DNA of 64,000 nt from Phoronis australis (taxonomy: Eukaryota; Animalia; Phoronida), in contig NMRA01000228.1 in assembly GCA_002633005.1 (NCBI GenBank), forward strand, positions 53,881-117,880. The letters are read 5' to 3'. This document shows, one piece after another, positions 2,951-59,664 of the stretch. Each line of letters starts with the position of its first letter. The first letter of the stretch is position 1. A program made the translations under genes and the position numbers. The notes below the pieces were generated by a model. That model worked only from the letters and a program-made list of their open reading frames with translations. It made no database searches and was not told the origin of the DNA.

Positions 2951-3645
2951 AAGTAAAACAACATCAGAATCAGTGAAGAAATGAGTACAATCACATAAGT
3001 TCACATCCGCGTTGCCACTAGCAATCTGTTTCAAAAAGATGCACAAAGTGAACTGATGGTTAACTTCAATTAATTCTAAATGAGTTCCTACAGATATCTA
3101 AAGTGGGGTGTCAAAGAACTTTGACTTTTCTTGAGTTAAAGCAATTTCGAAGCATAAACGGATCAGACCTCTTGACCTAAGTCTAGGTTGTCTTTTCAAC
3201 GTAGGAACAAATATGGTCGCCAGAGCTGAAGCAGTGGAAGTAGGCAATTTCTTCAAGTATTAAAACTTGAATGGCTAACCTGCATGGAGGTGACAGGTTG
3301 TAGAAACATTCTTCATTTTTTAATATTAAATCACTTTAAAGCATCGAAGAGATCACATGAAGGATTTATGAAACTACTACAGTAGAATATCTCCCACCTG
3401 CTTCTGTATGGCGCTGCATGTCTCATGACATCCATGCAAAACTTTATAAATTCAATAATATTTGTAAAATGATATTTCAGGGTCGTACAATTTGGTCGCG
3501 CTTCAGGAAATACACATCTTATCAAACTGAAGGGTATCGCGTTACTTGTGTAGAGTCCGTGATAGGTTATTTTCCTACAGCCGCTAGGTGCCGCCACTGC
3601 ATTTGTAATATACCAAGGGTAAGTAAAGAAAGTCAGTTATCTTAC

Positions 3646-5494: not shown

Positions 5495-8400
5495 TGTTAC
5501 ATATGTAATCAGGCTCAAGCTTCTTATACAACCGACATTCCGGTACTATCCGGCCTTCTTGACATGAACCGCTATACTGGTAACGCTTACAACGCTAACG
5601 ATGTTTTCATGGAGCCTAGAGCCTATATCATTGCAAGTTTATACTATTTTTCTCATATTACCGTAGAATTCACTGGCTGTTTCTCGTATTGTGTATGACT
5701 GCTTAGCCCATGCTATATTACATGGAATATCTTCATTGTATTGCAAAGTGAACGCTGTATTTCCCAAAACTTATTATTCGTTATATTTGTTTCAGTGAAA
5801 CCGGCCTCGTCGTACAGTAAGCATTCAACATCAACTTTGTTGTGAATAAACGTATCATATCCGACTATCCCGTGTGTTCAATGCTCATTGCTCCTACATA
5901 TATTTTCACATGAATGCTCAAGAAACGACCAAGAGTTTGGACATGAATCCAGGAACAGTGGACGAGTTTCACAATGCCCCTATTAACCTCGATACCGTGA
6001 ATAGGGAGCCAACCGAGCGTGGCCTAAGAACCATTCAACGAGCGAGGAAAGCTGAACTGCAAATTAAGCAAGACATTCCGAAACGACAACAAGAGTTGGT
6101 TTTAGAAGAACTACGTTTGGATGCGGAACGACGCTAGGACAGTATAATATGTTTCAAGCATCAGGAACTTGAGATTCACGCCGCGTTAGCTGAATTGGAA
6201 GCCGGGTTCGATGACATTAGTGAGCAGCATACCCCTCTAGCAACCCTCACAGTTCGCCACTCAATGTATCTGCATCAGAATTTGTGCCCGTATCTTCGTT
6301 ATGTAATCCAGTAACTGTGACTATGTCGACACCTGCTGTGTCTGCAGTGCCTGGGTTCGCATCAGACTTTGTGCCTGTATCTTCGTTATGTGATCCAGTG
6401 ACTGTGACTATGTCGACACCTGCTGTGTCTGCAGTGCCTAGGTTTGTACCTTGTGATCCAGTGACTATGTTGACACAGGCTGCATCCGCCAATACCACAT
6501 TAGCGCCACCTGTTATGAACTGTCATTACAATCCACCGGCTACATCGTCCTCGCCCGCACTGGCGCCACCTGCTGTTAACACTTGTTACTATCCGCTGGC
6601 TGTATCCGTCACTCCTGCATTAGCGCCACCTTCTGTGAACTCTCGCTATTTTATGCCAAGCACCGTAAGCATTTCGGGTATTTTGGACTTCGTTGCTAGA
6701 AGGACCTTGCCTACACCTGAGATAAAGAAATTGAACGGGGATGCAGACCAGTACCGCCAGTTCATCAAGGCGTTTGAAGTTCGCATAGAAAGCAAGCTGG
6801 ATTCCGAGATTGATAAACTTTATTATCTAGAGCAGTATACCTCAGGAGATGCGAATGAACTTGTGCGAAGCTGTTTACACATGCCAACGGACAATGGGTA
6901 CGCCTTGAAAGACATTAATCAATTAATCCAACTTGATCATCCCAAAAATCTTCAAAAACTCATGTCAAAAATGCCTGCGCCTTTGCAAAATAGATGGCGG
7001 CACGAGGCCAGTAAGATTCGCGGCAGATTTACTAAGGATTTTGTGAACTTTGTTTGTGATGAGTCCTTCATTTTTTCTGACCCAGTATTCAGTAAGCGAC
7101 CAACTGGTAAATTAGAGGTGAACATTACCCAGCACCAAACTGTCTCTTGCATATACTGTAACAGCAACCATCGCATAGATGTTTGTAACGCCTTGTGTGC
7201 GAAACCTTACAAGGAAAGACGACAATTTGTGATTGAACGGAAATTATGTTTCGGTTGTTTAAAACCCGGATATTTTTCAAAAAATTGTAGATCCAAAGGA
7301 CAATGCAAAAAATGCAACAAACGACACCCAACCATACTGCACATCGGCGGGTTTGAAGTTCCCAAACGGCAACCCGCAGCAGCCAAACAGAACAAGCGAC
7401 AAGATGACGCTCAACAAGAACGCCGAGATGCGACCACGAACACAGAATTAAGTGACCGTGGAGATGATTGCAGGGGTACATTCGCCACTACGTCATACAA
7501 CACTACAGCAATGATGCTGATCATACCTGTGCGCATCAAAAAGGTGGATTCCGAAGACAGCATCGCCACCTATGCCTTCCTTGAGAGTGGTTCGTAAGGC
7601 TGTTTTGCGACAAATGATCTGTTAAATCAATTGAATGTGAATGGTGTGCCGAGCAAGCTTCAGCTCACAACCATGCACGGACAATCAGAGGCTGAAACGG
7701 AGGCAGTCACTGGACTGCAGGTAGAGGATTTGACTGGCCAAAACGTTACAAACCTCCCTGCTGTATACGCCCGCGACGAGATTCCTATATCTCGAGAAGG
7801 AATTACCACCGCTCAAGATGTGGTCAAGTGGTCTTATTACCTCATATAGATATTCCAGATGACCACTCTGATGTTGACATCGGCCTTCTTATAGGCAGTA
7901 ACTGCGCCAATGCGACTGAACCACTACAGGTTGTGCCAGGCAGAGACGGTGGCCCATACGCGGTGTTGACTCGGCTCGGATGGTTGATCATCGGTCCCGT
8001 TTCCATAGCACTGCAGAACTTGTCAACGCGTGTTATTTCGTGTAACTATGTGTTTATGACGGAAAACCTAACCACAGAAATGACTAGACAACTGTCAATA
8101 TACGACCACATGAAGGATGTCAGTCAAAGCCAGCTCCTTCAGAAATTATTCAAATACGAGTTTTGCGAATACGCTACTAACGAGAAGGACGACGCCGTCT
8201 ACTCCCAAGACGACAGATGATTCATACATGTTGTGAATCGAGGCGTTCAGCATGCAGATGGTCATTGCCCTTTCGAGAGGGAAGTGATACTCTCCCGAAC
8301 AACCGAGAGATAGCCCAATCGAGAGCAAGAGGCCTTAAAAGAAAGTTGTTGAGCAACTCCACCTATCAACAAGATTATGAAACCTTCATGAACGACATTC

Positions 8401-8850
8401 TGAGCAAAGGCTACGCTCGTAAAGTACCTCCCGACCAGAAACCTATGGAAGGCAAAGTATGGTACATCTCGCACCACGGTGTTTACAACTCCAATAAACC
8501 AGGCAAAGTACGGGTTGTATTTGACTGCAGCGCCAAATGCCAGGGGAAAGCGCTAAACGACTGCCTTCTATCTGGGCCAAATTTAACCAATTCTATTGTT
8601 GGTGTGCTTACAAGGTTCCGGGAAGAGAGTCGTAGTCATGATGGACCTAGAGGCCATGTTTCATCAAGTGTGTGTACCGCCACACGACTGGGACTATTTT
8701 CGCTTTCTTTGGTGGCCAGATGGTAATTACAGCGCTGAGCCAGAAGATTTCCAGATGGTTGTCTATCTCTTTGGCACATCGTCATCGCCCAGTTGTGCTA
8801 ATTTTGCACTGCGCAAGACAGCAGATGATTTTGCGTACGATCCAGTGGTT
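5495..8850 (+). mobile_element. Degenerate, 3'-truncated BEL/Pao LTR retrotransposon in UCP4 intron 4, antisense to the host
   Basis: Putative LTR TGT...ACA at ~5495-5898 with AATAAA at 5845; gag with DUF1759-like LYYLEQYTSGDA and three Zn knuckles (CIYCNSNH, CFGCLKPG, CKKCNKRHPTILH); protease TYAFLESGS*; Pao RT motifs [43 protein letters not shown]; stops and frameshifts. Confidence 0.92.
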
Positions 8851-10710
8851 TGCCACTAGGAGGCGCCACAGTAGTTGACGTCATCGGAAAATCATCATCA
8901 GCCATCCTCTTCATAGTAAGAACATACATGCCAATTTTCACAATTATCATTAGAACGGTTTGGTTGATAGAGGGGTGGACGCCAAAAAACAGACTCGAAA
9001 ACAGTAACAAGAGCAACGCAGAGCGTTGAAATGCGCCCACAATTGCACCGTATACAGTATTCTTCTAGGGTTGTTTATTGGTACCATGAAGTGGCCAGTA
9101 GAGGGCATATATGTAGTATGTTGTACTTTGCAAAATGGAAAGGCATGGTCATTGTCTCCTCAATAGGCTAAGGGGCAAAATGTGAGTGATCTTCATAATA
9201 CAAGCACATCCTATACATCAGTTGCTTAAAGCATCACAGAAACATAGAATTAAAAAAAAAATTACCAACATACGAGATTAGCACAGCATTAGAATGCCAG
9301 AAACAAATTTCTACTTGGAACTTTTCCTTCATAGTCACGAAGTAACACAAAGTANNNNNNNNNNNNNNNNNNNNNNNNNNNNNNNNNNNNNNNNNNNNNN
9401 NNNNNNNNNNNNNNNNNNNNNNNNNNNNNNNNNNNNNNNNNNNNNNNNNNNNNNNNNNNNNNNNNNNNNNNNNNNNNNNNNNNNNNNNNNNNNNNNNNNN
9501 NNNNNNNNNNNNNNNNNNNNNNNNNNNNNNNNNNNNNNNNNNNNNNNNNNNNNNNNNNNNNNNNNNNNNNNNNNNNNNNNNNNNNNNNNNNNNNNNNNNN
9601 NNNNNNNNNNNNNNNNNNNNNNNNNNNNNNNNNTACATACCAAATTTCATGAAAATCCGTTCAGGACTTTTGAAGATACAAAGGTAAGCGTAAAAAACTA
9701 AAATTGCCACTAGGGGGCACACCGGTAGTCGGATCCGTCCAAAAGTCGTCATGTTTCGTTGTTACCATCATATAAATATACTTACACAATTTCGTAAAGA
9801 TCCTGCGAACGGCTTAGGAGATACAGCCATAGGCAAAAAAAAACAAAACTGCCACTAGGAGGTGCCACAGTAGTCCAAATTGTCTGAAAATCATCGTCAA
9901 CCGTCCTCTACATAGTAAGCATATACATGCCAATTTTCACAATCATCCTTTGAGCGGTTTGGTTGACAGAGGGGTGGACGCAAAAAACAGACTCGAAAAC
10001 ACTAAAAATGGCCACTAGGTGGCACAAACTATGTCGAATCCATCTGAAAATGGGAGGATAGCGTCATCTTACTAATAGGTGCCTACATACCAAATTTCAT
10101 GAAAATCCGTTCAGGACTTTTGAAGATACAAAGGTAAGCGTAAAAAACTAAAATTGCCACTATGGGGCACACCGGTTGTCAGATCCGTCCGAAAGTTCGC
10201 ACATGCCGTCCCATTCATGAATGGAACATATGTGCCAAATTTCATGAACGTATGTCAAAGGGTTTTGAAGATAGAGCTGCGGACGCCGAACGGACGCCGC
10301 CCGTACGGACGGACGGATGGAGATGACGGCATAATGCGTCCACATATAAATATGTGGGCACATAAAAATGGCCACTACATGGTGCAAACTACATCAAATC
10401 CGTTCAAAAACGGGAGAATAGCGTCATCTCACTAATAGATGTCTATATGCCAAATTTTATGACAATATGTTGTGGATCTAGGGGGCACACCAGAACTCGG
10501 ATCTGTCTGAAAGTTTGCTCATGCCGTTCCATCCATGAAAGGAACATAACTACGTGCAAAATTTCATGAAGATGCGTCAAACATTTTTGGAGCTAGACCA
10601 GCGGACGCCAGACGCCGGACAGACGTCACCCGGACGGGCGCCGCCTCGACAGGCGCCGCCTCGACAGGCGCCGCCTGGACGGAGATATAAGTATGTGGGC
10701 ACATAAGAAA
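8851..10710 (+). mobile_element. Non-autonomous Helentron/HINE-like element(s) with ~150-bp tandem monomers; spans the N gap
   Basis: Recurrent CCAAATTTCATGAA and GCCACTAGGNGGC motifs; 450-bp repeat (9635 vs 10085); (GGAC)n tract at ~10290-10320; 3' stem-loop CCACATATAAATATGTGG followed by CATAAAAA. Confidence 0.65.
9355..9633. other. Assembly gap (279 N)
   Basis: Run of N; further single-N joins at 33617, 55366, 57302 and 59665. Confidence 1.
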
Positions 10711-16359: not shown

Positions 16360-18660
16360 TTCACAGTAGGAACATAGTGCATGCCAATTTCCACAATCAT
16401 CCTTAGAGTGGTTTGGTTGACAGAGGGGCGGACCCCAAAACCAGACTAGAAAACAATAAAAATGACCACTAGGTGGTGCAAAATACCTTGAATCAATCCG
16501 AAAATGAATGGATAGCGTCATCTCAACAAAAGATGCCTAACTGCCAAATTTTATGGAAATACGTTGAGGACCTTTGAATATTCAGCGGTAAACGTAAAAA
16601 AAATTGCCACTAGGAAGCACACCGGTAGTCCAATCTGTCTGAAAGTCGTCGTTGTCCGATGTCGTATTAATACATTTGCTAAATTTAATAAAGACCCTGT
16701 AGAGCCATGGGCACAAAAACAAACAAAACTGCCACTAGGAGGTGCCACAGTATTCAAACTCGTCGGAAAATCAATGTCAGCCTTCTTCTTCACAGTAAGA
16801 ACATATAGACCTAATTCACGCCGACAGAGGTTCGCTACGATAGGTCTGTTGGCTTATCGGTATACTGGGCTGTATTCCGTGTTGCTCGAACGTCCAGAAA
16901 AATTACGAACACTCAACTGTCTGTTTTACAATCCCTAAGGACGTTGATATTAGGAAGCGTTGGGTCGTTGCCAAAAGCCGCGACGAAGGAAAATATGTCC
17001 GTATAAAATTTATAAATGTTTTCGAAAAGTTAGATCATATTTTGTCGCATCTCGGTTGCCGACTGGAGCATCATAGCACTGACGACCAGAGAACCTTCGG
17101 CCAGCCAGGCTGTGTTTTTATGACTACGGGTTGAAACATGATGCATTTTTCATTCCAACAACGACAGGGCCCTCAATACCTCGATTTTGGGGCCGAATAT
17201 CGGCCCTATTCCCCTCTCCGGCAAAAATATTGAAAAATCCACCGAAATTCCCACACAAGGTCTAAACATTCTATGCCCTAATGATTGAAAAGTTCTCTCC
17301 GAAGTTCAAATCACCTGTAATCACACAGGTGACACTTTGAAAGAGCACAAAAATGCTACTTGAGACAGAGCCTATGAGAGCTTACAGGTAGATTTTTCCC
17401 CTCACTCGGTGAAAAAATTCCTTCTCAGAAGGCACAGGCACCGTTCCCCAGGATGCACGAGGCCCCTGAAAAAGCAAGATAACTATGCCTGCTCTGTCCA
17501 CAAAATTGACCTCTAAGAAACGAGGTTGTGCTTTGGACGAACGAATTAGGTGTTTTCATTTTAAAATTCAACTTGGCCCAGATTGATATTTGAAATCTTA
17601 CACATGAGACGTAAGAATTATTAAAACTAAGAAAGCAGAATTGATGGTCAAATAATTTTTATTTTCAATTATGAGCCTGTTTTTTATTTTAATAGAAAAT
17701 ATTTAATAACATCAATTATTCTTTCAGATCAATGACAAATCAACTGTTAGTCCGGGTAGTCCCTACCTCACCAGGACCTAGGTTATTGATGTTCATATTC
17801 TTGATCAACAAATTAACCAGATGTGACCAATTGACAGCAATACAAGCAGATGACCTGGTGCGTGTAGAAAGCATTTTTATCAACAATTTATAAGAAGAAA
17901 CGTAACCATGAATTCAGCATAATATCTGATCTGTAATATGATCGCCGCAGTTTGGTCATATTTACTTTTCAGGTTTCGAACCTAGTTTTCTGAAAAAAAA
18001 ACTTAATACCCTTTCATCAGACAACTCTTTGGTGCATTGACTTGTTCTCTAACGTATTTTTCTATGTCTCTGTGGTTAATTATCGACACATTTTTACGAT
18101 TTAATATCCAGGTTGGACTCGAAAGACCGGCCATTTAACTCACGCAATGTCAACTTCCGCTTTGTTTATCGCAGTGAGCCTCGCTTTGGATTTTAATGTC
18201 TGCCGCGTGAATTAGGTCTATATACCAATTTTCACAATCATCCTTAGAGTGCTGTGGTTGACAGGAGGGCAGACACCAAAAAACAGACTTGAAAACAGTA
18301 AAAATGGCCACAAGGTGGCGCATGGCGCAAAATACCTCGAATCCGTCCCAAAATGGGAGGATAGCATCATCTCACTAATAGATACCTAACTGTTAAATTT
18401 TATGAAAGTCGGTTAAGGACTTCCGAAGATACAGAGGTAAGCATCAAAAACTAAAATTGCCACTAGGGGGCACACCTGTAGTTGGATAGGTCCTAAATTT
18501 GTTGTCACTCGTTGTCAGCTTCATAGGAACACATTTGCCAAATCTCATCAAGGTTCTGTGAGGGGTTTACGTCATGATACAGCTGCAGACGCCGGACGCC
18601 CAGACAGAGATGATGGCAATATGCATCCACATACAAACATATGTGGCTGCATAAAAATTC
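16360..18660 (+). mobile_element. Second copy of the same ~150-bp-monomer HINE-like family, split by an insertion at 16806-18220
   Basis: Aligns by eye to 9850-10370 (ccaattttcacaatcatcctt...tgccactagggggcacacc) and has the same 3' stem-loop. Confidence 0.7.
16806..18220. mobile_element. Non-autonomous TIR DNA transposon nested in the HINE-like repeat
   Basis: 16-bp perfect TIR TAGACCTAATTCACGC plus subterminal similarity; TA on both flanks; host repeat resumes exactly after 18220. Confidence 0.8.
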
Positions 18661-29882: not shown

Positions 29883-30415
29883 TAAGACGGTTGATTGTCC
29901 TACGTTTTAGCCAATTAAAAGGTCCAGCGGGTCTTTAGCTGGAGTCGTAATAAAGTATAGGAAATCTGATGAGATTCAGTAGCACTTTATACTATTTACC
30001 GCCTTAGGAGAAGGAGAGAAGCTCGTAATCTGCACTGGTGCCTAAATGAAAGTTTATTGCTGTAATTTTTTGCCTATTTAGCACACAATATGGCGAACAA
30101 GTGAATCTCTTATTTCATCAAATTTCAATAAAAAAACTGTTAAGCAAATTTTGTTCCACTGTAAACTTGGTTTGTAGTGTGCAGGTGGCTGAAAACACTG
30201 TTTGTTAAGGTTATTTCAATCAAGGTAATTGGCCTTTGAAAAATGTAAAAGTAACATTTTCGGGAACTATGTTTGTGCAGAATAAGTAAAAAATTAGAGT
30301 GGAGCCTCTGATAATGATGTTACTGTTTGATATATTAAAGGTTTTCATTTGTCACCTTGTTTAATTGTGTTCTGGTGTTTGGTTTTTGTTGTTCATTGTA
30401 CTCACTTTGTTGCAG

Positions 30416-30608
30416 ATATGGTAGTACAGTTCAGCATTTTAAGATAATGAATGATCTGGCCGGTAAATATTTTGTTTGGGTGGTCAAGCATACGTCTATC
30501 AATGAGCTTGTGAAATATCATCGTGAGAACTCAGTGAGTCGTGACCGTAAAATACTCCTGAAAGACATGGTCGCCTCAACTCCAGCACAACCAATACATC
30601 CAGTACTG
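30416..30608 (+). CDS. GRB2: GRB2 exon 4 (SH2 C-half plus linker)
   Basis: VQHFK..D.AGKYFxWVVK..SxNELVxYHR..SVSR; donor CTG|gtaggt is the best phase-0 site, but the 3' boundary is slightly uncertain. Confidence 0.92.
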
Positions 30609-31001
30609 GTAGGTTTGTTTCAGCCTGTGTGCACTGCAGGTTGTGTATGTGCCACTTTAAGGATACTAAACCCTATTTTCATGATTTCAACCAATCCATG
30701 TTGTGTCACCTGCTAATGCATGAGTGGCGTCATTCCTGAATTATAAAGTAGGAATTACTGGAAAATTCATACTCCCTTTGTCATAGATTGGTTGCTGGTT
30801 GGTCTTTTCTCACAGTTGCCGTGTAATTCGCTAAGAACGTAGGTCACACTTGCCCATATAGCAGACTTTGAATGGAGTTTTCAAATTTCCTGTAAACTTT
30901 TGAGAGTTGTAGAGGGTTACAAAGCATTATTTTGTTTCAGACAACTGGATGGGAAAATCGTTTTTAATGTCTGTTAATAAGCCAATACTGGGTTTGGTAT
31001 C

Positions 31002-42200: not shown

Positions 42201-43246
42201 CTTTCCGACTACTTTCACTGAGAAAGACACCTATTCTTACAAAATTCCCCACCAATAACGAAAAAATGTCTTTTCCAATTTAATTTCCCGCATTTAATTG
42301 TTCCACTTTGGGATTTCGAAACTTTAGACTTTATTCTGACCACACAAATCAGCAGAAAGATAAGGATACAGCCTTGTAACGTTTCAAACTTAGACCTATT
42401 GAGTTAACCCTAGCAAAGGGTTGTTTCTGAGACAAAACCCAACGAAATAGTAACTTTTCATTGAGTCTCTTTACAAATGTGCCGTAAACCTTCTAATAGA
42501 ATTAAAGCCGGGTCTCTAATAAACGCATCATTTTAATAGAAGCACAGGGTCCAGACACGCTGAAATTAATAAATGACGGGACTCTAATATAGAAGCCTCC
42601 CTCTAGCCAGGTCTCCACAGTCCCGTCCACGCACACCCTACCCTCAAACAACTTACACTATCTCAGAGTTGCCGCACGATGGCATACACTGAGCCGATTC
42701 CTTATTTTGTGACTGAAAGTCTGAGGGCAACCAGAAGCGTATAAGAACGTATGCAGAAATGAAAAAACAACGAATTCACAGCCATGATCATGAGAGATTC
42801 TTATGCCAACGAATGCTAAAAAATTCAAGTAAGCGGGGGTACGTTGACTTAATTCATCATAGTGCCTTGAAAGCGTTCGACATAACCAGCTTTGACAATA
42901 TTAGAAAGGCACGCAAGAGTTTTTAACACTCCATGGTTAGCACGCAAAGTCTCGCGTCACAGCCCTCGTCGGGAGTTGCAGAGGCTTACTAATGATAAAA
43001 TGTTTTTAAGAAAACAGTGTTTTCTTATTCAATCCCGTCTCGGTTAAGGGAGAATTCGTAGCAATATGGCATGTAGACTGAAACAAAATTCCCAGTCACG
43101 AAAGACATACAACGAAGTGCATTTTGGCATTGTGATTATGCTTAGGTGACGATAATGAAATATCGGAAAATCGACATTTTAGAAGTTTAATTTATGCATT
43201 AGTGCCAAACTTATTGCTACCATACACCTCACACGACTAGAGAGTT

Positions 43247-44865
43247 CTAAGTCCGATGTTTTGTGGCCTTTGATTTACCTTTAACCTTTTTTGTTTTTGT
43301 TTTTGTATGCCCTTCATGGTCACTTTTTTCGCTTAATAATGATTTTTTTGAAGAAGGAACGCGGCTTCCGCTCTTGGCGATGGCCAACGATAATCCGGAT
43401 ACTGAGAGCCTGTCTTTACTGGGAACCGGCCTTATTTGTCCATCTAGTGCGCTGCCTCGGCGACGTTTACGAGAGGTTTTCTCGGCTTTGTTGTCTTGCG
43501 TTTGATTGGCGGTTACCAATGAATTTTCTCTGGACGTACAGGGAGTATAGTCGTCCATTTCCAAAGATTTTTGTTGCTCTGCAAACAGCGTCCTCAGCTT
43601 GCGCTCATTGACTATTAATTTCATGTCAGATATTTCTTTAGTAAACGAATATAGTTGTCCGACAGCGTAGTTAACCTCACTAACCTCGGCCTGGTCGTAA
43701 GGCTCTAGTATTTCAAGACAACGTTGTGACACTTGTACTCGCAACTTTTTAAAGCGGAACATCTGGAGCCGTTTGGTCAGTACCTCATAGTTGCACAGAT
43801 TTTTGCAGTCACTCCATTCCCGTACCCGGCGCTCAGCCTCACCCAGCGTCAAGAAGGTTGCTACAAGAACATCGTGAATCTCTTCTGGCACAGGATCAGA
43901 GTTTTTAACTTGTACAATCACCAGCGGATCAAGTGACGTTAGCAGGTTCTTCCTCAGTAGTTCTGTACGCGTCAGAGCTTGGTAAAGTTTTGATACTTCC
44001 TGGATTTCTATTACTAAGTCGTCCGCGTATTCGCTTTGTTCGGCATCTTGTATTGCATCCCGGATTAAATTAGGGTCATCGAGCTCACTAGCTTTTTTCA
44101 TTTCCTCTTTCAACTTCAGCACTTCTAACACGTGATAACACCTTTGAATAACAGTGATATCAAAGTTGGATTGTGATTCGTAATCTGCTTTGTTGGTCTC
44201 GTATTCCTTCAACGCTTTCGAAATGACTTCTTTCTCGTGTGAATCACACGCAAACTTAAGCGTATTTAAGAGTACATTGCACTTCCGTTGTAATTCCTTT
44301 GTTTCCCTACTAACAGGAAGGCACGGTGAAATGTCAGGTGTGGACTCAGAAGACATAATGGTGGGAAGGCACATGTCAACTGGATCCACGTTGTAACCAG
44401 TTGACGACGGTTCTGTCTGATTCTCAGAAGAGCTTGGCTCCGTTTTCGTCGACTCTTTCACCGACTTATTCCTCATCGCACTCACTCTCTGGAAGCGGCT
44501 TTTGCTGCGTCTTTTAGTTAGGAAAAGAGACGACGTTAGTTGTTTGAATGTTTCATTTAATGCTGCATTATGTTTCACAACGTCGAAATTGATCGTCGTA
44601 AAATCACTGACCTCCACAGAGTAGCGTTTAGGATATCCGTAATCACATGAGAGGCGAACTTTGCCCTGCGTCATGCGTTGCTGTTCGCGATGCATTGCGA
44701 CTTGATTTACTATCTTTTCGTATTCGATTTCAAAGACTTCCAGAGCTGGGTCTCTAGGATGTTGCACTCGGTGTACTTCGAATATTCCCGCAAGTATTGC
44801 ACACAAGACCAAAATCACACTCAGCCGTGTTGCCAAATATTGGAAGAAGAGAGAGGCAGTCTCAT
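43247..44865 (-). CDS. Large terminal exon: TM helix, helical-repeat region, dynein-stalk/MTBD-like domain and basic tail; uncharacterised membrane protein
   Basis: Uninterrupted 1.6-kb frame. The listed start is TTG and there is an in-frame stop just upstream, so splicing is needed; phase-1 acceptor ttccgcag|44865 (alternative phase-0 site at 44881); TM LSVILVLCAILAGIFEV. Confidence 0.85.
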
Positions 44866-47226
44866 CTGCGGAATTGGAAAGCTAGGATAACAATTAGTTA
44901 TGTCAATATAGGCGATTACGTATTACTAAGTAAAAGTTACAAGTGTGTCTTTGAACTATTAAAAAGGTAAGGGCACTTTGTGTTTGTTTGCTTCTAGTTT
45001 CCAAGAAACTGAGAAAATGAACAGTATTCCTGCGTGAACCTACTCAGAAGGAATTAAATTCCTGATATAAATTTGACATATCTTTAAACAAATGTCTCAA
45101 GGTAACAGAAAATCTCTCTACAAAAAGTTAAGAGACGAAAGACACAAGATGGATGGTACACGCGAGTTCACTGTTTCAGGCAGATGGCTGAAGCTTGGTA
45201 TGTTGAATTGACGGCTTTGAATATCTTTCAGGACCTAAAAAACGAAATCACTAAATTAACTCTCACATACTTGTCTCAAAGTTTCCCTTGTCATGTTATC
45301 ATGTTTTCGGGTTCTTCCGGTGAAAAGAAGTGAAGGGTCACCTGCCACTGATTTAGAACTGTTCAATTATGTACACTGGAGTATGATAACCCATCAAAAT
45401 GTGTTGGCTTTTTGAAAAACTTTTTACTTGTTGACTCCCTGATCGAGTGACATGTTTGTCACAGTGCTGAAGAATTTGAGACATCGCTTGTGTTCTAGAG
45501 TTACGTATTCTATTATTTACATTTTAGAAGGAGAATAAAAAGGAAAAACGAACAAACAAACAAAAACTTAGTGACAGAGCAACATACTTGGCGAAATTTA
45601 TTTCGCCAAGTAATTACATACATACATAAAACGCCCAAGTTGAGTGTCACCATTTTAGTTGCCAATTGGTAAAAACAGATTGCGAATCTGCAATTAAGAC
45701 AGACAGACGCACACAGACAGACACAGAGAGACAGTGGCTTTTCATATGTTTATATGCTACATCTTTTGACCAGCATTCGTAGTACTATTTTCAGCCGGAG
45801 GACGCTGCAATGATGATTAAAGAAATTTAATCTTAACTGGAGACGATACAGCGACTAATTGGTCGTAACATCTCTTGGAATAGCCTAACAAACCACCTAG
45901 CTACACACTAGTACGCCTTAAAACATGTAAGTATTTAAAATGCTTACAGAGTTACACAACACATTGTCCTCCTGTTGTTTAATTGATCCAGTCAGGTTTG
46001 ATTTGAAGAAAAGTCTCCGAGCAGCCACGAGGACATTAGCGCGGAATCGAATATGCAATCAACCCCCGGGAAGGCAGATTAATGCGCAGCTGTCGGAGAT
46101 AAATCCAAATTGATAAAAAACAGAATAGTACAAGCCTCTTCACTAAAGTCACCGGCGAGTGTCTGGCTGACAACGGCAAGAATTCTGTAGTGTATTTAAG
46201 CTGTATTTCGCCATGAATAGTAGGCTAAAACCGAAAACTGGCCTTTTACTCTAAAAGTTAGGTTTCATACTCCTTACCAAGATAGGATTCCATTTCCATT
46301 ACCAAATCAAGTCACAGACAATTCGTACATGCGCCATGCCATCTCCGAATTTGCAATTTTAGAATTCGTCAACTGAACCACTTTCTTGAGTCCGTGGTAG
46401 TTTCGATCTTCTCGTTGGTTACGATAAAGGAACCCTATCACGGCAAGGAATATTATAAGACCGATGTTATGGGAATACAATAATTAATCTTGTTAAGCAA
46501 GTCGAAATGTAGCGTTATAGCCGCTGCTTGTGGTGAAGATGGTCGTGAAAGCAGGCAATTGAAAAAAAAATTGTTTTAAACTTGCACCAGTGTATGCGCG
46601 CCCGCTGAAGTACCGTTAGAACCCATTGTGTGTCGTAATCAGTCTATTCGGCGCTACTGGCGCACGCGCTTTTTGTCACAACGCCTTTGCGACATGAGGG
46701 CGCTGCCAAGAAACGTACGTCTATTTCCAGACCATACACGTCACACAGATAGTCTAGTTGTTTATGTTACAAACAGTGCATGAACTTGGTCTCTCCCATT
46801 CAACAGTAATCCCCACATTGCGTTTTAGTAGTTAAGCCGACAATGTCTCTTTTAACCTTTCAATGAACTCATCATAGTTGCCCTGCACCTTCTTACTCGA
46901 CGTCGTCTTTTCTGGAAACGGTCTTACTTCATAGTAAGATGCTCATTTAAAATACAAATAAATCAAGAATTTCTTGCACTGAGAACACAGTCGTTATAGA
47001 TTACCTTCATGTGTCAATTTTCTTGGAAATTAGGGACCAACATGAAAGTACACTTACTTTTTTACTAGTTCATACATGTAGGTGCAAGAGTCGTTTCATA
47101 ATCACAAACAGCGGTATGAATTCTTGTGTCTAGTGGCAGCTGCAAGGCTTCCGAGAAATTATGAGAAATTGTGCAATGTACACAATAAATAAATAAGTTA
47201 GAATTTAGTACAAAAACAAAACTCAC

Positions 47227-47535
47227 GTTCTGGAATAATCTCTATGTTTATGTAGGTTGACGACTTGAACTTAGTAACTTTAGAGTTAACCGCCTCGCAA
47301 TAAAGTTTCCCACTTTCTTTGGGATGGAAGGATATAGTGCTTTTTAATTTGCCTCTTGCTATCTTGGGCTCCGCTTTCATAGGACGCCCAGACTCCTGGC
47401 GGAACCTGAAGTATGCACCCGGATTGACATCTGTCGCCTCACAGTGCACGTTAACCAGGGTCCTTTCCTTTAGCTGGAATGTTGTATTTCTTGTCTTTTG
47501 CTTCTCAATCGTCATAAGGAGTTCGCGCGGCCCAT
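47227..47535 (-). CDS. Ig-like (C2-set) domain exon 2
   Basis: VNVHCEATDVNP...SGKLYCEAVN; ttgttaag| acceptor and |gtgagt donor; 309 nt, phase 1-1. Confidence 0.85.
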
Positions 47536-48216: not shown

Positions 48217-48444
48217 AATAGACTCGTTTCATGACAAAATGAACTTGAAGTTGCGCTCCCTCCTGCACACACACCCATTTCTTGTGCAGCATTTCTCTGG
48301 TTGGGATTATACGCAGCTCTTTGTTGTGGATGGGCATTTGGTCCTTGGAAGATTTCCACCATACGTTACCGTCCAAGTTACAGTAGCAAGTGCGAGGCTC
48401 GTTGGCCACGAAGACTGTGTCATCGTTGCAAGTCAGTTTATCAG
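48217..48444 (-). CDS. Ig-like (C2-set-like, shortened) domain exon 1
   Basis: ttcccag| acceptor and |gtgagt donor; 228 nt, phase 1-1; C..W..LRIIPTRE..KWVC pattern; splicing to the next exon recreates the inter-Ig VYYGP motif. Confidence 0.7.
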
Positions 48445-50613: not shown

Positions 50614-51349
50614 ATTTATGCTCGGAATATGTCCCGAAAATAATAGGTGCGTCGCAAGCTCCGTTTCCAGAGATACAAAGGAGACCGTGTATAGGCGATA
50701 TAAGGTCATTTATTATGACTGATAAGGTACAGAAATATGAGAGTACAAATAACATAAAGATAAAATAATAATATCTGGAAAGATGGGCAATAAAAAGCGC
50801 CAGCACTCAGGTAAGAGGAACTACCCAAAGTAGAGGGTGGTAGAGCGTGGGAAAAATGAAGAGAGATTAGCTCGAACCTAAGTGCTGCAAAGCGAATTAC
50901 AGATGGCAGGAAATATAACTTTCTTGAGAACAAAGGAGCCCTATGACACGTGACAATCATCAGCCTATGGGAGCCAGGAGCCCAGTGACCAAACTCGTGG
51001 CAGTAATACAAACGAACCAATAGTGAGGCTGGAAATGGAATGTCCTAGTGCCTTGAGTGCAGGAGGACCGCATGCGAATCTACACAAGGGGTTATTGGAC
51101 CAGTCCGAAAGAGGGACGAGTCCATATTCTCGCATAAATATATTTAACGAGTGAAATATCATTTATGCTCGGAATATGTCCCGAAAATAATAGGTGCGTC
51201 GCAAGCTCCGTTTCCAGAGATACAAAGGAGACCGTGTATAGGCGATACAAGGTCATTTGTTATGACTGATAAGGTACAGAAATATGAGAGTACAAATAAC
51301 ATAAAGATAAAATAATAATCTCTGGAAAGATGGGCAATAAAAAGCGCCA
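50614..51349 (-). mobile_element. Two 189-bp direct repeats (50614-50802, 51161-51349) around a 358-bp spacer; probable DIRS/Ngaro split-repeat end
   Basis: Copies differ at about 3 positions; share AGATGGGCAATAAA..GCGCC and ATATAACTTTCTT with the relic at 60280-62230. Confidence 0.55.
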
Positions 51350-52207: not shown

Positions 52208-52579
52208 CTGAAAGAAGAAAATAGATAGCCGATGATAATGCCGTAGTGGGAATGTAGCCTACCGAAATTTTTAATAGGACTTGAATTTATAATTAGGTTT
52301 CGGTTGGCAGGACAATGTGAAGGTTCTACAGCGATAAAACCACAATACGCTTCGAGAATACTCAAACATATTAGCACACGAAATCACTGAATACTGAATA
52401 CAGGACCTGAGAACATTACTGGTGTATGTCTTCGATAGTCAGCAAAACACATTGTGGTAATCCCGAACTGTCTGTTTTTAAAGTCATACACGCGCAACTG
52501 AGAACAACATCTCACGAAGAACGCATATTTTGTTAACATTTTTGGGAACATAGTTGAATCCGGCTATATACCTCATTCT

Positions 52580-52746
52580 CGCAGTCGCCATTTTAAAAGT
52601 GAGCCTCTTTTTAGGTTTTAAAAACAATGCACTCTGCGCTTAATCAAAATGCAAAGCGTGATTTTTTTCGCGTGCCCCGTTATACTGTCTCAAATGCATT
52701 GTTTTTTAAACTTAAAAAGAGGCTCACTATTAAAATTGCGACTGCG
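52580..52746. repeat. Inverted repeat/mini-MITE (~55-bp arms)
   Basis: cgcagtcgccattttaaaagtgagcctcttttta / taaaaagaggctcactattaaaattgcgactgcg. Confidence 0.8.
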
Positions 52747-53567
52747 TAAATAAGATTTATGGTAAGCCTACAAAAAAAAAATAATAGAATAAACGGATTC
52801 CCCAGGCCTACTTTTTGGCAGGCTCTAGAGTGACGGCAATCGGTGGAGCGTCGACTGAGACCGGCTGAGGTACTTCGTATTTTGATATCATGTGTCAAGG
52901 ATTTGCATGTAGCGTTGTGTCAACGTAATTAAAAAGTTCTGTTCGCTAACTTATGAAGTAAAGTAGACTACAAGAGAGATAAAGTAGTTATAAAAATGAG
53001 TCTCTTAAACACACCAGTGCATATGATACGATGCATCATCGCCGACAAAAATCGCTTCGTGTCTTCTTCTTTCGATACGAACCTTTGTACAATCAATTTA
53101 CAAGGCAACCCAATATAAAAAATGAAAGGAGACACAATGTGCAATTCAAGTGTCAGGGATTAATAGTCAATTGATCCGTAAGGTATATGCGAAGGGCACC
53201 CTGGAGAAAAGGTATTCCAAGGTGTTTGGGCCCTCCCCATAACATATTCAGACTGAATTCGGGCTCATGTACGTTGTTTCAGTCTAGTGGTAGCATGTTA
53301 CGGAATTGGAACATCGGAAGCATTTGTTTGGGATTGTCTTGAAATAAAAAAATTGGCTTGCACATTATCATGAAAAGCGTGAGAAAATCGCAATAGTATA
53401 TGGTAGTATGTCAATTTCACCGTGTCCAAAAAAAGAACATTTTGATGATGTAGTAGTGTGGCGGGACAAACCTTCAATATAAAAATAGGTTATTTAAATT
53501 CGCTCTATAGTCCAACTACAGGGTGCGATTTTTTCCTTTTCAAAGCTCTTTTGATCTTTCAGACGCA

Positions 53568-54225: not shown

Positions 54226-57200
54226 TGAGACATAACGATGAGAAATCTACAAACCAAAACCAAGGTACAGATAGCCAATGCAAAATTAATATTGTACCAG
54301 TCCAAATGCTGCACTAATGAGCATCCGTCATGTATGATACGTTTGGTACCAAACAAGGCCACACTACTGAGACTTTTTAGAGTTAACTGTTATTTTGTTT
54401 TATTTTTTCTAGCATTCTTAACACTGATAGCTACATCCTGGCTATTAGATATCCTTAAAAAGCTAGTGCAAGGTTACATCGTTAAATTCAAACTGGGATA
54501 AACCAAGTTAATTAGCTTGGTCATAGCGGATCAGGGGGTCCGCCCCCCTCCCGTTTCCTTTGGTTTTACTGATATCAAATCTAGAATTTTCAAGTTGTTG
54601 ACTTGGATGTCCCTTTTTTAAAAAATCCATGATCCGACTCCCCCACCCTTTTAAAAAATTCTGGATCCGCCCGTGGAGTTAAAGAAATTGGGCAGAGGTT
54701 CGTTCCTATCTCTGTCAGGATTACGGTAAAAATTCGCTCTGTAGTATATCTGATTACTGCTGCTCTGCCCAGGCTTTTGCTGAGGTCGGAGAATAACGTT
54801 GCACCACCTAGCACCCAATATTACGCCAACTTAGCTGACGTCCTCTAGTCGTAGCTATGTCAACGCACGTTGCTGCTGCTCCCACTCAACTCTAGCTAAT
54901 GGGCATGTCGATGGTACAGTCATGAGCTATCGATTTATTCGGAGATTGGAATGGAGTCGCCAAAGGTGATCATAGAAAATTGTTACGCTCACAGAAGTCT
55001 TGTTTTTGGCTTGAAAAGCGTAGTATTGGGATATTCGCAATACAAAGTCATTCAGTTTAAAGAGTTCCCACCATGCATTTTCTTACTTTTTCAGGTTTCA
55101 GTTAGCTAATATGAATCGAATGCCATAAAATCTTGCTAAATAGGCACTTTTATGCCAAATATTGGCAACTTCTTTAATTTTGAAGAAAAATTACTTATTT
55201 CTAAGTTTCCCGCCAAATGATGCAATGGGTGGAAGATGGTTGGCCGCTTGACAATCATTTGCATTGTCGGAACACTGCAGGTCAGAAGACAATGACAATA
55301 TTAGGCGAGAATTGGACAATTATTATGCAGTCCGACAGGAGAGTGGATACGGGCACTTATACTCANACGGTAAAAATTCGCTCTGTAGTATATCTGATTA
55401 CTGCTGCTCTGCCCAGGCTTTTGCTGAGGTCGGAGAATAACGTTGCACCACCTAGCACCCAATATTACGCCAACTTAGCTGACGTCCTCTAGTCGTAGCT
55501 ATGTCAACGCACGTTGCCGCTGCTCCCACTCAACTCTAGCTAATGGGCATGTCGATGGTACAGTCATGAGCTATCGATTTATTCGGAGATTGGAATGGAG
55601 TCGCCAAAGGTGATCATAGAAAATTGTTACGCTCACAGAAGTCTTGTTTTTGGCTTGAAAAGTGTAGTATTGGGATATTCGCAATACAAAGTCATTCAGT
55701 TTAACAAGACTTTTCTCCCATTGGGGTCTCTATAAGAACGAAAGTAACGTAAATCTGGCCAACAGAAGTTGCAATTAAAATAGATAATACATAGGCGGAT
55801 TTAGGGGGAGGGAGGGGCAGGGGGCACGAGACCCCCCAATTTCAAGTGTTAAAGTCGGAACACGGCGCAATCGTAACGGAACTATGGCTAAGTATAGGCT
55901 CTCCCGCGATATCCCAGGCGACCGGCAGTGGCGCTGCACACCACGACTCCGTTTCCGTCGTCTGCTCCACAGTGCAATGAAGAACATTACTTCATTTTTT
56001 AAAGAAAGTGGAAGCTGAGTGGCGATGAAAAAACAGAAGCTGCTGGTAAGATGTGAATTTTAATCGAAGCCTTAGTGAATCACTCAGAAACTCATAATTC
56101 TCTCTTTTGTCAAACCTTAACTTAAGACGATTTCCAAAGGCGTCATTAATGTCAACACGAAAAACGGATTTGGTCTTTTGGGCAATTGAAGACTATTTTA
56201 AACACAACAAATTTGTTACGAACCGATTGCAAAAAAATTAAAAGGTGTAATAAGCATTACAAAAATAAGTAGGTTTCGCGCGCAAACGCTGTGGACAATA
56301 AGCAAGTAGTTCTTTTCATCAGTAGTAAAGCGTTAAATCGTGGTGATGTAGTGGTAAAGCACGCGCGCTCAATCCGCCAGGTTTCAGTAACGTTTGGTGG
56401 ACTGCATAATATTTTCTTGGTTCAGAAACCAAACATCTCCAAAAAGAACCAGCTTAAGTCCACAATTTATGTTAACCAGTAGTGCTTTCATTGTCAATGA
56501 CGTCAGATTCACGGTAAAATACTCTGTTCTAAAGGACCCTAAAAAGATACTAGAACCCATTTTGATTCAACCAATCCTCTTTCTGTCACCTAGTGCTAAT
56601 GGATCATTGGCGTCAAAGTTGAAAGGTAAAAGCAGGAATGAAAAAAAACTCATGTCACCTATTTCACAAATTGAACCCGCGACGGAACAACTGAGGTAGC
56701 AGTTTCCCACACGGTTGCCGTGTAATTATCTAAAAGCCGCGGCGTAGGTCACGCGTGCCCGTTTAGATGAGACCTTGAAAGGAGTCTTCAAATTTTCCTT
56801 CAAACTTCAGTTGAGGTTGTCGAGGGTTGCAGAGCATTAATTCGTTTTAGAGAACTGGACGACTAAAGTCGTTTTTAGTCTGTTAGAAATTATGGTATCC
56901 GATGGAAAGCAAAGCGGAACATTTTCAGGACACAAATGTTTTATGTAAAATTTAAAATTCTCTGCAGGACCGGCAAAAATATATCCAAAACCAAAACTTC
57001 TCGCCCCAGGAACTATAAGTCATTACGTCAGGACCCGAAAATTAATGTCAGGGCAGAATTTTTTCAGCCGCTCTTCAGCTTGGCGCGCTTTCGCAGTTAC
57101 ATTACGGGGTTGACTCGGAGTTCATTAGCTGTCTCGCGCCGAGAAAGTAGCCAAAATCATGTGTTCTCACACGGCAACATCAAAGTAATCTCGCGAAGTC

Positions 57201-57899: not shown

Positions 57900-59664
57900 A
57901 TTGAGAGTGCCAGTGTAATTTCCGTTCAAAATAGCGGACAGTGAACCCCCGGAGAAAGTAAGAAGAGGACCTTATGGAAAGTACAAAGTAAACTCATCGA
58001 GTGCTGTACCGAGGCAAACTGCGTGGAGATGGAAATGTAAGAATAGTGCAAAAGCAGCTGAAGGGACGAGCGAAACACACCACGACTCTATCGACCCAGC
58101 TTGCGGGTCGGACCTTGCTGACAGCTGACGAGGCCAATAATGTCAATGACGAGCCGATCTTTGATGAAACGTGCGAACCTGAGGCGAACAGTGCCGACTC
58201 AGAAAATCAAATGATATTTAGTGGAACTCGGATCACGCTTGCTGTCAGCCATCTCCTGTTACTAAGCTTTGTTATGCGACACGGGCTGTCTCATGAAGCG
58301 CTTGGTGACCAGCTAACATTGATCGAGTTACATCTAGTTGTACCGAATACCTTTAATACTTCAAAACAGGCATTTCATAAATTCTTTGAGAGCTTGAAGA
58401 AGCATGTGCGAAATTTTTTTTATTGTTCGCACTGCCACCACTTGAATGGGGAGGATAATAATGGCCACTGCACGATAACGGCTTGTGGTAAGAAGTTACC
58501 AAAAGACTCGAGTATGGCGGAGTATATCTATCTCTCAAGGACCAGCTTCAAGAAAAAATCATTAGTAAGTACTTAATTTCAATTTGTGTGGAATACATCA
58601 TGAAGATCAGAAGACTACCAAACTTATTAGAAAGCAAAACTAGTAATGTCTATGAGACCGTTTCACTGCACCTTTCTAATCACGAACAAACACCCCTTCA
58701 ACATATGCTAACTTTAGTGCCTGTTACACTTAGAGGGAGAGTCACAATAGTAGAGCACATTAAAGCTGTCTTTTCAAGTTGTTTATGTCATCATGCACTG
58801 CTAATAATTTAAAACAACTATGTCAGCTCTAGAACAATTCTGCAAAATGACTTAAGCTGTGGATTCCACAAAATGCACAATTGTTATGAAGTGTTCTTGT
58901 TTTTTGTATACTTTTTGTATTAGACTGCCATTGTTAATTGCGACTTAAAAATGGATGTGCTGTATTGTTGAAAAGGAGTTTACAAATAATTGTTCTTTTG
59001 TTGCCTTCACTATGTAATGTATAGATATTGTCAACTTATCTGCTTGGTTTCTGTAAATAAATAATGATTAACATAAACATACATGTATGGCATTTGTATG
59101 TATCGTACTTAAAACAGTTGATGACACAACATTAATTAATTAAGGTCAATGGGCAGATAATGTATTTTTGCATGTTGAGGACAAAGTAAGGCAAGGAATT
59201 AGAGTTTCATCCCTGACATTATGTGTTGGGGTTGATTTTCTATTTCGTTATGCTTACTGCTAGCACGTTACATTGTTATTAATTATCAGTCACTTCTGTT
59301 TTGAGATATAATTAAGTCCTCTGCTTGTGGATTGGATCACATGTAAAATATTTGAAGAGATTTCAGTCATCATTCAGTCACATCTAGAAAGTTTAAGATA
59401 ATTCAGTCATTAATCAGTCCTATGTTCAGTGATCCAAAGAGATTTCAGTCATCATTCAGTCACACTTTGAAAGTTTAAAGACAATTCAGTCAATGTTCAG
59501 TCACATCTAATGCATTCTAAGACTATTCAGCCATAATTCAGTCACACCACCTGTGTTAGACATTTGTTCAGTCACAGGTTGGTCATGACTGAATTGGTCA
59601 GTCACTTATCAGTCACAAATCAGTCATGACTGAACGATCAGTCATGACTGACTGTGGGTAAGGG
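57900..59664 (+). mobile_element. EnSpm/CACTA-like transposon relic: truncated transposase N-terminus (58001-58576) and right end with TCAGTCA subterminal repeats
   Basis: LLLLSFVMRHGLSHEALGDQLTLIELH...FFYCSHC..C..C fits animal CACTA transposase N-termini; roughly 20 TCAGTCA/TGACTGA units; terminus GTAAGGG. Confidence 0.7.

Follow-up and report, generated by a model that had tools for sequence, protein, structure and literature searches.

The microtubule-binding domain (MTBD) at the tip of the dynein stalk is generally regarded as a part of the motor only. Excerpts of work on the yeast MTBD bound to tubulin describe an interface held by salt bridges from K3117, E3122 and R3124 of helix H1, R3152 and R3159 of helix H3 and R3201 of helix H6 (PMC7042235), with E3122 as the sole acidic residue on the dynein binding face (PMC7042235; PMC4298687). 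In the passages available from two further papers, the H1 glutamate and the H6 arginine are conserved across dyneins (PMC4298687; PMC12706001), and the face by which dynein-2 binds microtubules is described as neutral to slightly negative in charge (PMC12706001). A non-motor helix bundle that sits on the intradimer tubulin groove is described for TTLL11; the excerpted passages do not relate it to dynein and use the term 'MTBD-like' for TTLL6/7 (PMC12366701). In the literature searched, which lies mostly outside subscription journals, we found no dynein-type MTBD described for hillarin/KY or membrane proteins.

Here we analyze a window of 64,000 nt from Phoronis australis (contig NMRA01000228.1, positions 53,881–117,880, forward strand), in which open reading frames are sparse and genes are spliced. 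The sequence-only reading of this DNA had singled out a 529-aa ORF with a dynein MTBD-like segment. This ORF does not form a gene of its own: raw RNA reads place it in the last exon of an expressed, spliced, five-exon gene on the minus strand, and its TTG codon is therefore not a start. All four exon joints are RNA-supported, GT–AG and in frame, and the reads are strand-specific. Over the 529-aa ORF, RNA covers one strand only at a depth of 14–32 in two of three raw-read runs, and the remaining run from that study has zero reads there. The spliced product is a single open frame of about 741 aa, counted from the ATG closest to the first joint; further in-frame ATGs lie up to 45 codons upstream, leaving the start codon uncertain. 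An ATTAAA motif occurs at 43191, beyond the stop of exon 5. What stands out most at this locus, and was missed by the sequence-only reading, is that the ORF closes a gene combining Ig domains with a predicted membrane helix. The locus comprises the following features.

52407–52595, minus strand: exon 1, 5′ end approximate (read depth stops at about 52595); joint 52407/52207, 40 reads; by translation it contains an upstream ORF, 35 codons long and out of frame, as well as candidate start codons
52148–52207, minus strand: exon 2, 60 nt, GT–AG joints on both sides; a hydrophobic, signal-peptide-like segment, judged by eye
48217–48444, minus strand: exon 3, probable first Ig-like domain; joints 52148/48444 (37 reads) and 48217/47535 (32 reads)
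47227–47535, minus strand: exon 4, Ig-like domain of C2/I-set type
44866–44881, minus strand: alternative splice acceptor, 16 nt upstream of the main acceptor of exon 5; 4 of 12 junction reads
43247–44865, minus strand: coding part of exon 5, comprising the 529-aa ORF and 10 further codons, through the stop; joint 47227/44865 from the Ig exons, just 8 reads, from runs X1 and X2
44780–44836, minus strand: predicted single transmembrane helix, ORF aa 1–19; Kyte-Doolittle 19-residue mean 2.38
44297–44779, minus strand: linker, ORF aa 20–180, partly Ser/Thr/Glu-rich; no Pfam match
43946–44296, minus strand: two helical repeats, ORF aa 181–297; AF2 pLDDT 95–98; repeat HMM 18.8 bits over aa 245–288
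43622–43945, minus strand: dynein-MTBD-fold head, ORF aa 298–405, with H1–H6 and a CC2-like helix, assigned from profile, AF2 model and Foldseek
43250–43579, minus strand: tail of the last 110 aa, basic (26 K+R against 12 D+E) and probably disordered; no Pfam match

Use of the alternative acceptor at 44881 shifts the frame, and by translation the predicted product is a 208-aa protein of the Ig exons alone that stops before the membrane helix. Inside intron 4, a CT..AC joint at 45232–45946 (minus strand) is spanned by four reads with two starts from one run, with low minus-strand depth nearby, and may mark a minor transcript in which exon 5 is included and the Ig exons are left out. At position 44313, all 55 of 55 RNA reads disagree with the window, changing ORF V175 in the linker to D; the mismatch may be an allele difference or an assembly error. 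An inverted repeat with 66-nt arms that are 86% complementary lies at 52566–52760, where the transcript appears to begin.

Elsewhere in the window, an SH2-domain exon at 30339–30716 (plus strand; Pfam E 1.4e-05) belongs to another spliced gene, and we take it to resemble GRB2/Drk. A broken retrotransposon-like element at 5850–8859 (plus strand) carries gag-like and pol-like frames in pieces and is presumably BEL/Pao-like; the two of its frames that were scanned gave no Pfam match at E ≤ 0.01. A THAP-like frame at 16844–17134 (plus strand; Pfam E 0.0064, under the cut-off) is a possible P-element-type remnant, and a 194-codon open frame with a Cys/His cluster and no Pfam match at 57992–58576 (plus strand) is, we assume, transposon-like. 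Two near-identical direct duplications are present, one at 50614–51349 (98% over 189 nt) and one at 54723–55666 (99% over 300 nt) that has N at its junction and may be an assembly artefact.

From N to C terminus, the product reads as a signal-like start, Ig domain or domains, a predicted membrane helix, a linker, helical repeats, an MTBD-fold head and a basic tail, an order that predicts a single-pass Ig-superfamily membrane protein of type I topology. One Ig domain is clear and one is probable. Exon 4 encodes an Ig-like domain: it matches Pfam Ig_2 at E 0.0014, under the curated cut-off, its best PDB sequence match is FCRL5 (9loc; whole-chain E 3.8e-15, summed over weak repeats), and Ig families occur on 8 of 10 Atlas clusters among the matches listed, at 0.92–0.94. 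Exon 3 has no match in Pfam or the PDB and appears Ig-like by the spacing of its Cys and Trp residues, judged by eye. The hydropathy peak at ORF aa 1–19 is the sole peak above 1.5 in the spliced product. No Pfam match to a transglutaminase-like core or a KY-type Ig domain was found in exons 3, 4 and 5.

The homology of the head to the dynein stalk tip emerges through its relatives. The Pfam MT search on the ORF itself, proposed as a check by the sequence-only reading, came back negative, and phmmer with the ORF alone recovered no dynein in the PDB. A phmmer search with ORF aa 180–420 against 1.84 billion representatives (E ≤ 0.001) yielded 62 relatives at 20–36% identity, and 13 of these match Pfam MT at E ≤ 0.01, three of them exceeding the curated cut-off. 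The profile of a family alignment comprising the ORF and 60 of the 62 relatives (the two longest, P0028 and P0048, being omitted) matched dynein sequences in the PDB, with E 1e-11 for the yeast MTBD and 5e-11 for DNAH6. A second profile of 26 sequences gave the same outcome, and the motifs agree all the way from H1 through CC2. With the ORF excluded, an HMM of 60 relatives scores aa 299–404 at 73.4 bits and the reversed protein below 0 bits; the 73.4-bit score is partly circular because the relatives were collected using the ORF. The independent links are the match of the family profile to PDB sequences, an indirect route to the dynein stalk tip, and Foldseek.

With the family alignment, AF2 predicts six short helices between two long ones at pLDDT 96.8 and pTM 0.87; a single-sequence model reaches pLDDT 49, with the head below 50, and the confident model therefore leans on the alignment. 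In the predicted model, H1–H6 lie between CC1- and CC2-like helices and superpose on dynein structures, and the last repeat helix continues into the head at the place of dynein CC1. The best 10 Foldseek matches are all dyneins or dynein-containing axoneme entries at probability 1.00; 6rzb and 6kjo have TM-scores by target of 0.71 and 0.69, rmsd 2.7 and E 0.016–0.25. Foldseek E-values are weak overall, the best being 0.005 and none ≤ 0.001. TTLL11 is absent among the matches listed. In the Atlas, mollusc-rich clusters appear at 0.92, and one cluster at 0.78 carries MT on 25% of its members, which we treat as a lead only. A chance or convergent likeness of a small helical bundle could be argued from the weak Foldseek E-values and from the ORF's own blank results in Pfam MT and the PDB, but the 13 relatives that match Pfam MT and the family-profile E-value of 1e-11 have largely refuted this explanation, which we find hardly credible. 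On family-profile evidence from sequence, joined by Foldseek comparison of the predicted model, we conclude that the resemblance to the dynein MTBD is real homology, as the sequence-only reading had proposed for aa 298–405 (43945–43622, minus strand). Its suggestion that helical repeats precede the head also held up, with AF2 helices over aa 181–301 and the repeat HMM matching the second repeat.

The head belongs to a family of modules in which one or more helical repeats of about 45 aa directly precede an MTBD head; its whole-head and repeat scores fall in the lowest-scoring tier of full-length members. The module is C-terminal in nearly all relatives, and 18 of the 62 are KY/hillarin-type proteins with Ig-like_KY (15 also with Transglut_core), in line with the similar module that the sequence-only reading placed at the C terminus of such proteins. 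The best two relatives, Pinctada KAK3098481.1 (E 3.6e-16) and Lingula XP_013404632.1 (E 5.8e-13), are both of this type. Among 30 looked-up proteins, the 19 with an organism come from molluscs, annelids, a brachiopod, a rotifer, amphioxus, tunicates, a ctenophore and a sponge; none of these 19 is from vertebrates, insects or nematodes. The Pinctada protein (P0002), itself KY-type, carries three near-identical repeat-plus-head modules in tandem. A separate 832-aa protein, P0073, has many copies of a similar helical repeat without an MTBD head, and the repeat may thus exist apart from the head.

Candidate membrane anchors occur in 23 of the 62 relatives: seven have a predicted membrane helix and 16 a myristoylation-like start, the latter an uncalibrated count by pattern, in a set where many relatives are fragments and kin are not independent. 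A hydropathy peak of at least 1.8 N-terminal to the head was required for a membrane-helix call; eight relatives passed, and the peak of P0036 was dropped as a likely artefact. An additional search added two membrane-type members beyond the 62. The membrane helix is N-terminal to the head in all membrane-type relatives, and their ectodomains are unrelated, being VWA in Styela, mucin-like and CD20-like in amphioxus, three-helix in a rotifer and Cys-rich in ctenophore and other records; domain scans found no receptor-type Ig domain in the other membrane-type members. In an unrooted tree of 62 rows, made without fragments and near-duplicates, the P. australis sequence sits on a long branch that finds no firm place, with 1.62 changes per column where the median is 0.54, and holding the membrane-type rows together with four neighboring rows is rejected (p-AU 0.013). 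These sequence data lend weak support to repeated fusion of the module to membrane proteins, weak in that the group was chosen once the tree was in view and the tree has no root. Protein-sequence searches and metagenome contigs returned no close orthologue of the Ig plus MTBD gene.

To compare the binding face with that of dynein, we mapped contact sites by sequence alignment, with yeast chain position 3107 corresponding to profile column 137 and all named residue types falling at the expected offsets. At the six yeast sites named in the excerpts, the head has P304, Q309, K311, S342, N349 and E387, keeping one of six; in the same order, the sites are kept in 11, 55, 49, 17, 6 and 5 of 57 full-head relatives, and 53 of the 57 retain at least two. 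A basic residue one place off is found in 41, 28 and 25 of 57 relatives and is absent from the head. The net charge of H1, H3 and H6 is −3 in the head against a family median of +1, with one of 57 relatives equally low, and the head deviates at 14 of 23 conserved columns where the family median is 4. Four replacements picked out earlier by eye fall in such columns, namely Q309 (E in 54 of 57), V316 (P in 53 of 57), N389 (S in 51 of 57) and F398 (W in 53 of 57). By alignment, H3 and H6 already differ from dynein in the family as a whole, and the P. australis head has lost the H1 glutamate as well. The low face charge is itself compatible with binding, because the dynein-2 face is neutral and the H1 of DNAH6 is acidic in the profile alignment. 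The head probably no longer grips microtubules as dynein does, and the earlier suspicion that binding is altered or lost appears likely on these residues and this charge.

Our preferred reading, to which we give a probability of roughly 45%, is that the gene encodes an Ig-type, type I membrane protein whose MTBD-fold head docks a cytoplasmic partner and has no dynein-type grip. The Ig domains would bind a ligand or a neighboring cell, and a rigid two-repeat arm would keep the head at a distance from the membrane. The head may have kept its fold and lost the charged tubulin-facing surface, from which we infer that it now recruits another partner; any residual microtubule contact would be weak and would need help from clustering or from the basic tail. 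The shorter of the two splice forms could act as a secreted, Ig-only decoy. The main rival to docking is a working membrane-to-microtubule tether, in which, with the Ig domains outside, the head, the basic tail and clustering would statically hold cortical or ciliary microtubules. We regard a tether as possible but doubtful. The predicted fold is intact, equivalents of E3122 and R3124 are present in most family members (55 and 49 of 57), anchor candidates recur among 23 of 62 relatives, and the tail offers 26 K+R in 110 aa. Yet the head has lost the E3122 equivalent with four other contacts, its binding face is among the most acidic, a four-residue H1 mutant of yeast dynein serves as a weak binder in the excerpts of PMC4046564, and the literature searched reports no microtubule binding by any member of the module family.

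The membrane helix, repeats, head and tail all lie within one exon, as they would in a young chimera formed when an Ig gene captured an intronless repeat-plus-head module that has since been drifting under relaxed selection, with no specific function, and the long unplaced branch and lack of a close relative in the searches described above fit the same history. Such a chimera is nonetheless improbable, given that about 741 codons have stayed open despite about 75% divergence from any relative, that the hydrophobic core is retained in a confidently modeled head, and that expression is stranded and sample-restricted. It is very unlikely that the protein is secreted or inverted, through a hydrophobic segment that fails to stop translocation or the lack of a signal peptide: a signal-like segment, a Cys-bearing Ig region, one helix and a long tail are the standard type I order, and the membrane-type relatives share the helix position, even though the segment is moderate in hydropathy (2.38) with few basic residues downstream and the uncertain start codon allows up to 45 extra in-frame residues before the signal-like segment.

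The new points are the design that joins Ig, membrane helix and MTBD and the repeated pairing of the module with membrane anchors. In invertebrates, the MTBD appears as a mobile module, often with a membrane anchor, and here it lies in the tail of an Ig-type receptor. We tentatively suggest that such proteins may make up a class not described before, in which dynein feet without a motor are attached to a membrane, that of the cell or of the cilium, and pin microtubules to it. The class would reach from sponges and ctenophores as far as amphioxus and tunicates, and its module would have been joined on more than one occasion to unrelated partners, namely VWA, mucin-like, CD20-like, Cys-rich and Ig regions. 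If so, an Ig-type surface receptor would tie cell recognition straight to microtubules by way of a dynein-derived domain. Membrane-type members that bind microtubules would be simple candidates for linking membranes to microtubules, both in cilia and at the cell cortex, and would offer natural MTBDs in a fixed state for study of the dynein affinity switch; if the head has lost binding, the gene would be a clear example of a motor domain turned into a receptor scaffold. In both cases, many KY/hillarin-type C-terminal domains gain a structural assignment mostly missed by Pfam.

Like the dynein MTBD (middle of PF12777 MT; 6kjo, 6kio, 6rzb, 3err; DNAH6 8j07, 9fqr), the head has six helices between two long helices, with the motif order from H1 to CC2 common to both. 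Dynein has an AAA+ ring and a long coiled-coil stalk, whereas this five-exon gene of about 741 aa has neither: no AAA family was found in any exon scanned, the product is not a dynein heavy chain, two helical repeats replace CC1, and the head follows Ig exons and a membrane helix. As in Ig-superfamily type I receptors, there is a signal-like start, Ig, one predicted membrane helix and a possible soluble splice form; unlike those receptors, the gene places a folded, dynein-derived domain in the tail, a combination for which our searches found no other case. KY/hillarin-type proteins (PF01841 and PF23265) share the C-terminal repeats and head but have a transglutaminase-like core and KY-Ig that the present gene lacks, its Ig being of receptor type, and many have a myristoylation-like start where this gene has a membrane helix. 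Several uncharacterized invertebrate membrane proteins also share the module, with the membrane helix N-terminal to repeats and head as here: Styela XP_077966891.1 (VWA and TM), Adineta CAF0857834.1 (3 TM), Pleurobrachia EP00116_P002106 (Cys-rich and TM) and Branchiostoma XP_066263927.1 (mucin-like and TM) and XP_066272931.1 (CD20-like, 4 TM). The six membrane-type members shown retain the H1 glutamate, which the present head has lost, and most membrane-type members stop shortly after the head, whereas the P. australis gene adds a long basic tail.
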